Source: a virus | Taxonomy: Duplodnaviria; Heunggongvirae; Uroviricota; Caudoviricetes | Reading direction: 5' to 3' (one strand) | DNA: 10,637 nucleotides | Virus record (IMG/VR): IMGVR_UViG_2529292908_000010 | Location: 1 to 10,637 of that record | The notes under the pieces: model-generated | What the model was told of the DNA's origin: nothing | Database searches by the model: none | Seen by the model: the letters and a program-made list of their open reading frames with translations, nothing else | Made by a program: the position numbers and the translations under genes | Part shown: in pieces, positions 5,063 to 8,162 of the stretch | Layout of the letters: the number at the start of each line of letters is the position of its first letter | Numbering within the stretch: position 1 is the stretch's first letter

Positions 5063-5509
5063 ATGGACCGGGATGATATTCTTGACAGGGTTTTATATGG
5101 TTATTTTCTTGAACAACTATTCTCTGTAGCGACTGGTCGTCTCGATAAACTTTTCTCAGTGGTGAGTATTATCCTCGGTTCATCTGTCATTGGTGGATTT
5201 ATTCCTGAAGTTTCTGGAGTTCTCATCGTTGTGATAGCAACCGTTCAAACGATTTACGGATTCGGACAAAAGTCAGGTAACGCAATGAGAAAATCCGCAG
5301 AATATCTGCAGCTTTATGATGATGCAGAAAAATATTCCGATTCGGAATTGAAAATGCAGTTAAAGCTCCTGGAAAAAACAGATGATAATATTTGGTCGTC
5401 GCTTAAAGATATCGCAATCTTAAAAACCCAGATCAAAATAGGAATCTCCGTAGAACAACAAGAGAAACTGTCTGCAAAATCCAAATTGATGCGATTCCTT
5501 TGTGGTTAG
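5063..5509 (+). CDS. Small membrane protein, putative superinfection-exclusion / abortive-infection protein (SieB-like by architecture and position)
   Basis: 148-aa ORF, ATG at 5063 with AGGTGA 6 nt upstream. Two predicted TM helices (LFSVVSIILGSSVIGGFI; VLIVVIATVQTIYGF) then a charged helical tail. Rightward gene set among leftward early genes, as sieB is in lambda/Rac. Confidence 0.7.
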   Translation: MDRDDILDRVLYGYFLEQLFSVATGRLDKLFSVVSIILGSSVIGGFIPEVSGVLIVVIATVQTIYGFGQKSGNAMRKSAEYLQLYDDAEKYSDSELKMQLKLLEKTDDNIWSSLKDIAILKTQIKIGISVEQQEKLSAKSKLMRFLCG

Positions 5510-6025: not shown

Positions 6026-6313
6026 TTAAGGTGTTACAGGGAACTGTCGGCGGGCGTGAACTACGTTAACAATTTCAATGCCTGAAATTGTCACGCGGTA
6101 CAGTATTATGTAATTGGGGTGGGCTACAATTTCACGTAAACCGGGTACTCTGTCGCTTGGCGGGTATAAATACGGATGCTCAGATAATGGCAGAACGCAA
6201 GTCCTTAAGCGTTTCCACAAACGTTCTGCCGCATCTATGTCAAAACGTGCAATATAGCTGGTTATCTCATCTAGGTCGGTATCTGCGCTTTCAAGCCATA
6301 ACACGGGTAACAT
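6026..6313 (-). CDS. parE: ParE/RelE-superfamily toxin (ParE2-like)
   Basis: 95-aa ORF with RelE/ParE hallmarks (REIVAHPNYIILYRV...IEIVNVVHARR). ATG at 6313-6311 abuts the stop of the upstream antitoxin gene (TAA-ATG). Confidence 0.9.
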   Translation of the reverse strand: MLPVLWLESADTDLDEITSYIARFDIDAAERLWKRLRTCVLPLSEHPYLYPPSDRVPGLREIVAHPNYIILYRVTISGIEIVNVVHARRQFPVTP

Positions 6314-6505
6314 TTACTGTTTGCTCCGTTCCTTGCGCATTTTTGCAAAGCGTTCTGCCATTCTGCGTTCAACTTCGTCATGAGGAATAGCTGGACGTGG
6401 ATCAGCTAGGCTCGCGGCCACTTTTGCACGCAACCATTGGTTATAACTATTTTCTTGCTCGACGGTTTCAAATTCAGAAACCATTGGTGAAAGGGCTGTG
6501 TTCAT
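6314..6505 (-). CDS. paaA2: PaaA2-like antitoxin
   Basis: 63-aa ORF directly upstream of and coupled to parE, GAGG 6 nt before the ATG. Sequence (MNTALSPMVSEFETVEQENSYNQWLRAKVAASLADPRPAIPHDEVERRMAERFAKMRKERSKQ) matches my recollection of E. coli O157 PaaA2; recollection unverified. Confidence 0.8.
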   Translation of the reverse strand: MNTALSPMVSEFETVEQENSYNQWLRAKVAASLADPRPAIPHDEVERRMAERFAKMRKERSKQ

Positions 6506-6542: not shown

Positions 6543-6716
6543 CTAGGTAACTTTCTGTTGTGCTTCTAGCCACCTTGCAACTATACGATCCATTGCCTCT
6601 TTTTTCTCCTTCATATCTTTTAGCATTTGCTGTTGATCTTCCTCTGGAAATGCGTCAAATGTTTGAAGTAGTTCTTTTTGCCTAGGGGTTATTTTTAATA
6701 TACCCTGTGCCCTGTC
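6543..6716 (-). other. -1-frame continuation encoding the C-terminal domain of the PaaR2-like regulator
   Basis: From the slippery site the -1 frame reads DRAQGILKITPRQKELLQTFDAFPEEDQQQMLKDMKEKKEAMDRIVARWLEAQQKVT*, homologous to the C-terminal domain of the 6925..7338 gene. This frame opens only 4 codons before the slip site and has no usable start. Confidence 0.5.
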
Positions 6717-6937
6717 TTTTTTTCTTCATTTAATGGTAAGAAAAACCAATACTGAGGAAATCCCGTTACTTCAGATAGTTTATCTAGATTAGCTGCTGTA
6801 GGGCTTGAGATACCACAAACCCACCTTTGGACGGATTGTTGAGCAATACCAATTCTGCGCGCAAGTTCTGCTTGACTCCAGCCTTTTGTCAATAGAAGCA
6901 TCTTAATTCTAAGAGCACTAATTTCTAGTACGCCCAT
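6695..6937 (-). CDS. XRE-family HTH regulator, N-terminal part of a PaaR2-like regulator
   Basis: 80-aa ORF with classic XRE motif (LTKGWSQAELARRIGIAQQSVQRWVCG), first gene upstream of the antitoxin. Ends 5 codons after an A_AAA_AAG heptamer, beyond which the conserved C-terminal domain continues in the -1 frame. Confidence 0.75.
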   Translation of the reverse strand: MGVLEISALRIKMLLLTKGWSQAELARRIGIAQQSVQRWVCGISSPTAANLDKLSEVTGFPQYWFFLPLNEEKKTGHRVY

Positions 6938-7338
6938 TTGATATCTCTTGTTTTAGTATGTCTCTCGTCAGGCTCGGCGACCTTGCTGCGCCAACCAACG
7001 TGCAACAAGATCTTCCATTGCCTCTTTTTGTTTCTTAGTTCTTTTATGATCTCCTGCTGCTCATTATCAGGAAATGCACTAAATATTTGTAGCAATTCCA
7101 ATTGGTTAGGGGTTAATGCTATAGGTCTTGATGGCGGAGCTCCTGTTATGTCTTCTGGCTCAATATCAAGATAACCCCCTGGCATCCCATATGTTTGTTC
7201 AATACGTCTAGCCGCCTTTTCGCCAAACGTAGCTTTACCGCTCATTAATTGAGATAAGTAACTTTTCTCTTTAGGTGGCAAAGTCCTGTCTTTGAACCAC
7301 TCTTTGAGGCGTAAACGCCGAATCTCTTTTGTTTCCAT
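6925..7338 (-). CDS. Repressor-position HTH regulator (cI/RacR positional analogue), paralogous to the PaaR2-like regulator
   Basis: 137-aa ORF from ATG 7338 (track starts at GTG 7344), divergent from the Cro-like gene. N-terminal phage-repressor-like HTH (SYLSQLMSGKATFGEKAARRIEQTYGMPGGYLD); C-terminal domain (TPNQLELLQIFSAFPDNEQQEIIKELRNKK) homologous to the 6543..6716 segment. No SD, consistent with leaderless translation. Confidence 0.8.
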   Translation of the reverse strand: METKEIRRLRLKEWFKDRTLPPKEKSYLSQLMSGKATFGEKAARRIEQTYGMPGGYLDIEPEDITGAPPSRPIALTPNQLELLQIFSAFPDNEQQEIIKELRNKKRQWKILLHVGWRSKVAEPDERHTKTRDIKWAY

Positions 7339-7344
7339 ATACAC

Positions 7345-7373
7345 ATTATCTTTAGTAATTGCAAAATAAGCAA
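7345..7373 (-). promoter_or_regulatory. Putative pRM-like promoter giving a leaderless repressor mRNA
   Basis: Minus strand: -35 TTGCTT (7373-7368), 17-nt spacer, -10 GATAAT (7350-7345), placing the start site at or next to the A of the ATG at 7338. Motif-based only. Confidence 0.35.
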
Positions 7374-7377
7374 ATGC

Positions 7378-7407
7378 TTGACTAGTTTGTTTAGTTGTGT
7401 ATAAACT
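7378..7407 (+). promoter_or_regulatory. Putative pR-like promoter with overlapping 20-bp operator-like palindrome
   Basis: -35 TTGACT (7378-7383), 16-nt spacer, -10 TATAAA (7400-7405). Palindrome TGTTTA-N8-TAAACT at 7388-7407 overlaps the -10, 16/20 identical to the one at 5934-5953. Confidence 0.5.
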
Positions 7408-7439: not shown

Positions 7440-7721
7440 ATGACGTTAAAGGAATTCATCAAATCATTAAAAACTGGAGAAGCCAAAAAATTTGCGGCCA
7501 ACCTTGGTGTGTCTCCGTCCTTCTTATCCCAAATGGCATCTGGAAATTCACCTGTGTCTCCTGTTCGTGCGTTGATGATAGAAGCTGAAACAGGAGGACA
7601 TGTTACAAGACGAGAGTTGAGGCCTAATGACTGGGAGCTTATATGGCCTGAATACACTGGAAGCACGCCTCCTTCACGTCACAAATATGAACTTAACTCC
7701 AAAAAGCTGATGGGGGGGTGA
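7440..7721 (+). CDS. Cro-like HTH protein (YdaS-type)
   Basis: 93 aa from ATG 7440 (upstream in-frame ATGs fall inside the promoter). Cro/YdaS-like motif KKFAANLGVSPSFLSQMASGNSPVSPVRALMIEAETGGHVTRRELRPNDWELIWPEY. Divergent from the repressor gene. Confidence 0.8.
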   Translation: MTLKEFIKSLKTGEAKKFAANLGVSPSFLSQMASGNSPVSPVRALMIEAETGGHVTRRELRPNDWELIWPEYTGSTPPSRHKYELNSKKLMGG

Positions 7722-7724
7722 TTC

Positions 7725-8162
7725 ATGAAAATCAAGCATGAGCACATCCGTATGGCGATGAATGCGTGGCTGCTTTATCCGAGAGTGGGGCGCAAAAAAA
7801 TCGCTGATGATATAGCAACAGCATATTTTGAGCTTGAAATGACTTATCCACCAATGCATGACACCTCTACGACAGAGGGTATTGGATTGAACATACAAAA
7901 TATTTTTCGCTGGCTTGAAAAGGATACGCCTGATGCTGTTGAAAAAATTCAGGCACTAATTCCGGCGATCCTGACTGTTCTTCCGCGTGAACTGCGTTAT
8001 CACCTCAGTATTTTTGACACTGTTGAGCGCCGTGCATTACTGGCGGCGCAGGAAGCGTTGAGCACGGCAATTGATGCACATGATGATGCAGTCCAGGCCG
8101 TTTACCGGAAAGCGTATTTCAGCGACGGCGGGTCATCCGGCGAGTCTGTTGTGGTGCATTGA
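7725..8162 (+). CDS. YdaT-family protein (CII-position regulator)
   Basis: 145-aa ORF starting 3 nt after the Cro-like stop, G-rich SD upstream. Size, sequence character and position match Rac YdaT-type proteins. Confidence 0.85.
   Translation: MKIKHEHIRMAMNAWLLYPRVGRKKIADDIATAYFELEMTYPPMHDTSTTEGIGLNIQNIFRWLEKDTPDAVEKIQALIPAILTVLPRELRYHLSIFDTVERRALLAAQEALSTAIDAHDDAVQAVYRKAYFSDGGSSGESVVVH

Follow-up and report, generated by a model that had tools for sequence, protein, structure and literature searches.

Single-Nucleotide Frameshift Alleles in Two Adjacent Paralogous Regulator Genes of a PaaR2-PaaA2-ParE2-Type Prophage Locus

Layout of the Immunity Region and Identity of Its Regulators

The PaaR2-PaaA2-ParE2 locus of the cryptic prophage CP-933P in Escherichia coli O157:H7 was reportedly described by Hallez in 2010. 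In CP-933P, PaaR2 serves as the CI analogue and represses ydaS-ydaT; leaderless translation and octamerization were demonstrated by experiment for the O157 protein, and the locus is bistable at the transcriptional level (Jurenas 2021, PMC8630535). The window analyzed here, i.e., the whole stretch of 10,637 nucleotides from virus record IMGVR_UViG_2529292908_000010, represents the immunity region of an E. coli prophage of the CP-933P/Rac-like lambdoid type. The assignment to E. coli is based on how identical proteins are named at NCBI and on E. coli contigs with 90–100% identity. A megablast search of the INPHARED phage genomes gave no match to the region.

The gene order is the same as in CP-933P, where ydaT-ydaS are divergent from a 123-amino-acid CI-analogue repressor gene, which is followed by paaA2-parE2. 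In the window, ydaT and ydaS lie on the plus strand with replication genes beyond ydaT, and the minus strand carries, divergently, the genes termed here repressor and gene 2, followed by paaA2 and parE2 (Table 1). The repressor is thus placed as in the O157 locus (L009), with ydaS-ydaT divergent from it and paaA2-parE2 downstream; ydaS is divergent at most of 65 species loci. Two features distinguish the window from CP-933P: an extra XRE-HTH regulator gene, gene 2, is located between the repressor and paaA2, and the window has a frameshift in each regulator, where CP-933P carries only one paaR2, which is intact. The PaaA2 domain and the ParE domain, which follow in this order, are both full length and in one frame compared to relatives. 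The same holds for all of the 14 other genes compared in the window, namely int, xis, exonuclease, DUF1482, dicB, DUF1391, parE, paaA2, ydaS, ydaT, DUF1376, P, DUF1627, and DUF977. Pervasive homopolymer error was ruled out, since each of these 14 genes is read in a single frame.

The repaired repressor has no Pfam family, and its identity comes only from PDB sequence and fold searches. With phmmer it matched the PDB entries 7nkv, 8c3k, and 8c3l, all of them designated 'PaaR2 N-terminal domain', over residues 1–66 (E 1.4e-31), and Foldseek found 82–91% identity between these entries and the model of an intact orthologue. The identity of the repressor's N-terminal domain to the solved domain of PaaR2 is ~90%. 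It is also 74% identical to sequences which, past spurious N-terminal extensions, start with MQKKEIRRLRLKEWF..., the N-terminus that was established by experiment for O157 PaaR2 (PMC8630535). The N-terminus of gene 2 is an HTH_3 domain (Pfam PF01381, E 7e-12, residues 11–60). On these sequence matches, the repressor is assigned as the PaaR2 homologue and gene 2 as a different XRE HTH_3 regulator, which reverses the labels of the preliminary description, where gene 2 had been called "PaaR2-like". A promoter-like sequence, TTGCTT-17 nt-GATAAT, lies 6 nt before the repressor ATG and would be compatible with a leaderless start as in paaR2. A literature search for PaaR1 returned only papers on type VI secretion PAAR proteins.

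Three architectures of this locus were distinguished in E. coli. The first (A), paaR2-paaA2-parE2, is that of O157 and is also found in STEC17-183, whose repressor is like the one in the window. The second (B) is the window type with the tandem of repressor and gene 2 before paaA2-parE2. In the third (C), XRE-HTH-paaA-parE, a regulator of the gene 2 type is the only one at the CI position. Such prophages of E. coli and Salmonella (e.g., NZ_AP042687.1 and NZ_CP031908.1) encode a sole XRE-HTH regulator of 132–133 amino acids, to which gene 2 is 60–70% identical; the HTH_3 N-terminus and the C-terminal domain are common to both. Their regulator lies at the CI position and is directly divergent from ydaS, whereas gene 2 is the second gene of a tandem and is truncated. 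Furthermore, the PaaR2 N-terminal domain was also found fused to an S24 peptidase domain in LexA/CI-like proteins of ~210 amino acids. Since this N-terminal domain occurs with other C-terminal partners and the locus has three architectures, the family is modular, and interchangeable DNA-binding domains are carried on a common small C-terminal domain.

Table 1. Coordinates of the regulator locus and of the sequence features at the two frameshift sites.
Feature	Position	Strand	Evidence or remark
PaaR2-type CI-like repressor, frameshift allele	6925..7338	-	Translation; N-terminal domain matches PDB PaaR2 N-terminal domain
Gene 2, XRE HTH_3 PaaR-family paralogue, frameshift allele	6695..6937	-	Translation, Pfam
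paaA2-type antitoxin, 63 aa, intact	6314..6505	-	PF21217, E 7.8e-21
parE2-type toxin, 95 aa, intact	6026..6313	-	PF05016, E 4.1e-16
ydaS (Cro analogue), divergent from repressor, intact	7440..7721	+	Pfam YdaS; alignment to relatives
ydaT (CII analogue), intact	7725..8162	+	Pfam YdaT; alignment to relatives
Frameshift site 1, AAC AAA AAG, A5 run 7029–7025	7024..7032	-	Orthologues A6 (AAC AAA AAA GAG)
Ancestral repressor C-terminal tail EAMEDLVARWLAQQGRRA∗, here in -1 frame, second half of long C-terminal helix	6968..7024	-	
Strong RNA hairpin, repressor 3′ end	6970..7023	-	dG -25.8 kcal/mol, z -3.1; 0/200 shuffles as stable
Frameshift site 2, GAA GAA AAA AAG AC, A7 run 6723–6717	6714..6727	-	In-frame alleles 8 nt
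Ancestral linker and C-terminal domain of gene 2 (DRAQ...EAMDRIVARWLEAQQKVT∗), here in -1 frame	6543..6716	-	

Reading Frames of the Two Genes and Their Shared C-Terminal Domain

The 0-frame ORF of the repressor encodes 137 amino acids from its ATG, or 139 from an upstream GTG, and overlaps the start of gene 2 by 13 nt. Codons 1–105 (7338..7024) are orthologous, and the 32 codons after them are read out of frame as a by-product. Codons 104 and 105 are AAA_AAG at 7029–7024, in the phase C_AAA_AAG. From there on the 0 frame reads RQWKILLHVGWRSKVAEPDERHTKTRDIKWAY∗ (32 residues), and the -1 frame, starting at G7024, reads EAMEDLVARWLAQQGRRA∗ with its stop at 6970–6968. Letters and translations therefore agree with the preliminary description, according to which the tail homologous to the paralogue lies in the -1 frame after this AAA_AAG; the unrelated tail it had described in the 0 frame is also present, with 32 residues by count instead of the 31 given. 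The 0 frame lacks the last 18 residues of the C-terminal domain after K105, which are present only in the -1 frame. The complete C-terminal helical domain (LTxxQxELLxxFxxxPxxE...K...W/L...) is consequently not contained in the 0 frame.

Downstream of site 1 a strong hairpin is predicted (Table 1), with the strong stem beginning ~12 nt from the site. It was rejected as a frameshift-stimulating adaptation on two grounds: it is equally found in intact A6 alleles, and it lacks conservation in the GF60, Z1323 and O157 versions.

The 0-frame ORF of gene 2 encodes 80 amino acids with the end ...NEEKKTGHRVY∗ and covers nothing but the HTH domain and TGHRVY∗. In the -1 frame, starting at G6716, the gene reads DRAQGILKITPRQKELLQTFDAFPEEDQQQMLKDMKEKKEAMDRIVARWLEAQQKVT∗ and ends at 6543. 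The heptamer A_AAA_AAG at 6722–6716 is in phase at this second site, where in-frame alleles have A8, AAAATAAG, AAAAAGAA or AAAAAAAT. This frameshift falls in the linker, and the whole C-terminal domain is lost from the 0 frame.

The paralogy of the two genes, as proposed in the preliminary description, is borne out by their C-terminal parts. In a BLASTP comparison of the repaired proteins, residues 73–119 of the repressor aligned with residues 81–127 of gene 2 with 25/47 identical (53%) and 37/47 positive (79%) positions (E 2e-16), and the DNA of these segments shows 71% identity across 122 nt, interrupted by a single gap of 1 nt. By these measures the C-terminal similarity is judged to be far above chance. 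The N-terminal helix-turn-helix domains of the two proteins are unrelated. An AlphaFold model of an intact repressor orthologue (mean pLDDT 81) consists of a helical N-terminal domain, a disordered linker and a C-terminal domain, the latter built of a short helix and a long helix of ~30 residues (residues 98–128, pLDDT ~95). When placed on this model, the frameshift of the repressor bisects the long helix. By analogy with the octameric PaaR2, the shared C-terminal domain would be a self-association domain. A hetero-oligomerization of the two proteins, which had been suggested on the basis of this domain, is moot in the present strain unless recoding takes place, because neither 0-frame product has an intact C-terminal domain.

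The same four-gene arrangement was found in 17 complete E. coli genomes with 90–93% DNA identity, 15 of which were examined in detail. The repressor comprises 372 nt and 123 amino acids with an A6 run and the end ...RNKKEAMEDLVARWLA(R/Q)QGRRA∗ in 15/15 of them; for one (L016), where the site 1 pattern did not match, the state of the repressor was taken from the annotated 372-nt CDS. Gene 2 is a single ORF for 131–153 amino acids with 8 nt at site 2, again in 15/15 genomes. Compared to these sequences the window has exactly one A fewer at each site: AACAAAAAAGAGG is changed to AACAAAAAGAGG at site 1 (A6 to A5) and GAAGAAAAAAAAGAC to GAAGAAAAAAAGAC at site 2 (8 nt to A7).

This pattern extends beyond E. 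coli. In an alignment of 28 members of the repressor family, including those of Serratia, Arsenophonus, Photorhabdus, Erwinia, Pantoea, and Salmonella, the segment EAMEDLVARWL of the short tail aligns with the conserved AYYDAIFEEML helix found in Serratia, Arsenophonus, Photorhabdus, and Erwinia. In ~30 species representatives the N- and C-terminal domains were recovered in one tblastn segment. The gene 2 family is uniformly ~132 amino acids long in Escherichia, Salmonella, Klebsiella, Raoultella, Enterobacter, Rahnella, and Sodalis. Since the homologues read through both domains without a change of frame, EAMEDLVARWLAQQGRRA∗, the short tail, is ancestral, and the long tail is a non-conserved by-product of the deletion. 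At both sites the comparison with homologues, which the preliminary description had named as the means to decide between the frames, thus identifies the single-frame, short-tail version as ancestral. A frame change associated with a poly-A run in each gene, at different positions, was likewise part of that description and is found here as A6 to A5 and A8 to A7. Judged from the sequences compared, these changes are rare lineage-specific deletions of 1 nt and not a property of the gene family.

Rarity and Origin of the Frameshift Alleles

The two alleles are best explained as a pair of ordinary, lineage-specific frameshifts by loss of a single A in a known PaaR2-PaaA2-ParE2 module, i.e., as mutational decay which is possibly leaky, and we consider this reading highly probable. 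Each gene has lost one A of its poly-A tract, for which replication slippage would be the simplest cause, first gene 2 (A8 to A7, also in close relatives) and next the repressor (A6 to A5).

The distribution of the exact proteins was determined as contig counts in a collection of 15 billion proteins. Intact 123-amino-acid variants of the repressor were present on at least 1000, at least 1000, 806, and 244 contigs, and the 137-amino-acid form of the window on 3. Likewise, intact variants of gene 2 were present on at least 1000, 910, 340, and 134 contigs, and the 80-amino-acid form on 4. An exact 40-mer with the A5 allele had no match in GTDB species representatives or JGI metagenomes. Both sites included, the window is matched with 100% identity by Logan contigs of SRR491164 (over 4340 nt) and SRR094133 (over 3108 nt). 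The assembly GCA_023188415.1 and the run SRR18965766, with 99.2% identity over 900 nt, combine A7 in gene 2 with A6 in the repressor. As relatives with this combination exist, gene 2 broke first, in a small clade, and the repressor later: A7 is shared with these close relatives, and A5 was seen only in the sub-lineage of the window. The supporting runs could all derive from one strain or outbreak clone. The frameshift alleles differ by 8 substitutions in 900 nt, one of them in the gene 2 tail, which is too few for a dN/dS-type test of purifying selection on the out-of-frame tails.

In addition, a split gene 2 was observed in another background, a 00-3076-like lineage, where it ends in ...EEKKTGHRIY; the end here is ...KKTGHRVY. 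Two further frameshifted variants of the repressor were also seen, and all such other split alleles are on one to three contigs.

Regarding the A tracts as contingency loci, both regulators could be switched reversibly by slipped-strand mispairing, and such phase variation would diversify the expression states of prophage and toxin-antitoxin genes within a population. The natural occurrence of both A8 and A7 alleles, the split gene 2 alleles in at least two backgrounds (...KKTGHRVY and ...KKTGHRIY) and the transcriptional bistability of the locus (PMC8630535) are in line with this. However, tracts of 5–8 A are short for efficient switching, most alleles have interrupted, non-slippery tracts, and the off alleles make up well below 1% of the contigs, which leaves phase variation very unlikely.

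Both changes are single-base differences in homopolymer length, a classic error class of some sequencing platforms, so that miscalled runs or a faulty assembly might have produced two false frameshifts. Against this stand the independent contigs from at least two other SRA runs, which are identical at both sites, and the A7 run shared with the NCBI assembly GCA_023188415.1 and the fourth run SRR18965766. Moreover, the window contains 70 homopolymer runs of at least 5 bases, and the other 68 disrupt no gene. A sequencing or assembly artefact is therefore given little credence.

The favored explanation, mutational decay, fits the homopolymer-frameshift pseudogenes of decaying prophages, which show the same rare, lineage-restricted single-base deletions in A runs. 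The relative JNEC-KY208, for instance, carries a frameshifted ydaS in the corresponding region. Unlike in typical cases of this kind, the breaks in the window affect only two paralogous regulators, and the toxin-antitoxin pair and the other genes are intact. Under neutral decay it is a striking coincidence that two independent breaks fall in neighboring paralogous regulators and that the rest of the 10.6 kb is spared. That both breaks are in regulators and the toxin-antitoxin pair is intact fits a relaxed or even positive selection for the loss of repression in a defective prophage, for which it is mildly suggestive. Alternatively, the double break could reflect a regulated switch.

Slippery Sequences and Consequences for the Locus

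In dnaX (tau/gamma) and IS911 (OrfA/OrfAB), two products are made from one mRNA by recoding. The heptamer A_AAA_AAG of gene 2 is identical to such -1 sites and in phase, and C_AAA_AAG of the repressor is a near-match. Among heptamers in E. coli, A_AAA_AAG shifts most readily (PMC5009743), and at C_AAA_AAA, deletions of 1 nt were rescued by -1 frameshifting with 25–60% in an E. coli overexpression vector (PMC1851650). On this ground it might be proposed that both genes are "pseudo-pseudogenes" with efficient -1 slippage, in the repressor at a site with a strong hairpin behind it, and two isoforms each, a monomeric form with DNA-binding function only and a full-length oligomerizing form. Their ratio would tune the bistable immunity/toxin-antitoxin switch, and mixed oligomers, formed through the shared domain, would combine two repressors with different DNA specificities. 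This elaborate version is highly improbable.

A selected, programmed recoding by -1 ribosomal frameshifting or transcriptional slippage, which would yield a DNA-binding-only and a full-length oligomerizing form from each mRNA, has the lowest standing of the readings considered. It draws on the canonical dnaX heptamer of gene 2, at which a -1 slip gives the exact ancestral protein, on the documented shiftiness of such motifs in E. coli and on the hairpin after site 1 (Table 1). Unlike the dnaX and IS911 sites, however, the frameshifts of the window are not conserved, have no evident suitably spaced stimulators and stem from 1-nt deletions in a rare lineage. No frameshift is present in 15/15 orthologues of complete genomes, in the bulk of E. 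coli contigs or in other species. The A run of most gene 2 alleles is interrupted (AAAATAAG, AAAAAGAA), contrary to what selection for slipperiness would bring about. No significant structure was predicted downstream of site 2 (z -0.75), no SD-like element was found 10–14 nt upstream of either site by sequence inspection, and the hairpin of site 1, shared with intact A6 alleles, has its stem outside the usual distance of 5–8 nt. Transcriptional slippage sites typically need at least 9 A/T, and the runs of the window are shorter, with A7 and A5. Finally, C_AAA_AAG and A_AAA_AAG are in phase because one A was deleted from runs read as AAA AAA G, and the slippery motif is the automatic outcome of such a deletion. 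By this sequence comparison the slippery phase at both sites is attributable to deletion geometry, neither conserved nor selected, and programmed recoding is extremely unlikely.

For the two decayed alleles the following consequences can be assumed. The 0-frame product of the repressor would retain its domain for DNA binding and one half of the long C-terminal helix, followed by ~32 meaningless residues, and that of gene 2 of the HTH domain alone. As their C-terminal domains are incomplete, both 0-frame products are probably defective in oligomerization and cooperative repression. In addition, repressor translation would extend over the start codon of gene 2 and its ribosome-binding site, which may perturb the expression of this gene. 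An occasional -1 slip of the ribosome, or an extra A inserted by RNA polymerase, would restore the exact ancestral proteins, so that the alleles could be leaky instead of null.

The tail of 31–32 residues and the split gene 2 represent no new coding arrangement, and both genes should be annotated as disrupted. As near-ideal slippery sequences for a -1 shift that would rebuild the wild-type proteins, the mutant sites offer a convenient natural system for gauging the leakiness of such "pseudogenes". The tandem of regulators at the CI position, with unlike DNA-binding domains and the same C-terminal domain, is a common variant in E. coli and, as far as we found, undescribed. This tandem architecture with its modular C-terminal domain is of specialist note and not surprising; the locus offers a natural setting in which to test domain modularity and possible hetero-oligomerization.

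Regulators upstream of the toxin-antitoxin genes

Three architectures were found upstream of paaA-parE in E. coli, in the window and in the related prophage loci L009 (the O157 locus), L010, L011 and L023; they are listed in the table together with the other features. The paaR2-type and the XRE-HTH-type regulators have only their C-terminal domain in common. The tandem form is frequent in E. coli, occurring in thousands of contigs, and the publications consulted contain no description of it.

Orthologues of gene 2, the second XRE-HTH regulator between the repressor and paaA2, have a length of 153 instead of 131 amino acids in many E. coli alleles (related loci L002, L003, L012-L014 and L017-L022). 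These longer alleles lack the stop codon, and therefore their ORF extends 32 nt into paaA2. As a consequence, the protein gains a C-terminal extension, which varies, and translation of gene 2 overlaps with that of the antitoxin gene. Furthermore, ydaS, the Cro analogue, is annotated as frameshifted in the related prophage of E. coli JNEC-KY208 (L024, 7054-7327) and is a further decayed immunity-region regulator within this prophage group.

Features of the window and architectures of the regulator locus
Feature	Position	Strand	Remarks
Integrase gene	1-1119	minus	complete, 372 aa; window begins exactly at gene
ORF	5063-5509	plus	148 aa
RNA hairpin	6970-7023	minus	within repressor gene 3′ end
Repressor upstream sequence	7339-7400	minus	
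paaR2-type regulator alone			upstream of paaA-parE
XRE-HTH-type regulator alone			upstream of paaA-parE
paaR2-type and XRE-HTH-type in tandem	6543-7338	minus	upstream of paaA-parE

Start and 3′ end of the repressor gene

The sequence upstream of the repressor ATG contains TTGCTT and GATAAT separated by a 17-nt spacer, with GATAAT ending 6 nt from the ATG, and no Shine-Dalgarno sequence is present in this region. It is compatible with a leaderless PRM-type start, as was demonstrated experimentally for paaR2 of O157 (PMC8630535).

The strong RNA hairpin (dG -25.8 kcal/mol) was not equaled in stability by any of 200 shuffled sequences. It is present in most close alleles, in which some of the changes are paired. 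At the corresponding place, paaR2 of O157 and an XRE-type regulator carry another hairpin rich in GC pairs (GCGGCG...CGCCGC). Since no U-tract follows it, the hairpin is not an obvious terminator.

Prophage end

The window start is the prophage end, as the same integrase gene adjoins potC in L024. The 148-aa ORF has no counterpart among the compared proteins of the relatives.

PaaR2-type repressors in other species

In nearly all of 65 species representatives (loci L025-L089), the gene for the PaaR2-type repressor lies divergently to a gene of the ydaS type. Homologues of paaA2 or parE2 were not detected beside it at E ≤ 1e-4 in these representatives, and the toxin-antitoxin association therefore seems to be limited to the E. 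coli group of these prophages.

Proteins of about 210 amino acids from Yersinia, Martelella and others (proteins P0099, P0101, P0105, P0109-P0112 and P0115) also contain the PaaR2-type N-terminal DNA-binding domain, in this case as a fusion with an S24 (LexA/CI-like) peptidase domain. Because of these fusions, PaaR2 looks like a CI-type repressor with a small helical domain in place of the autocleavage domain.
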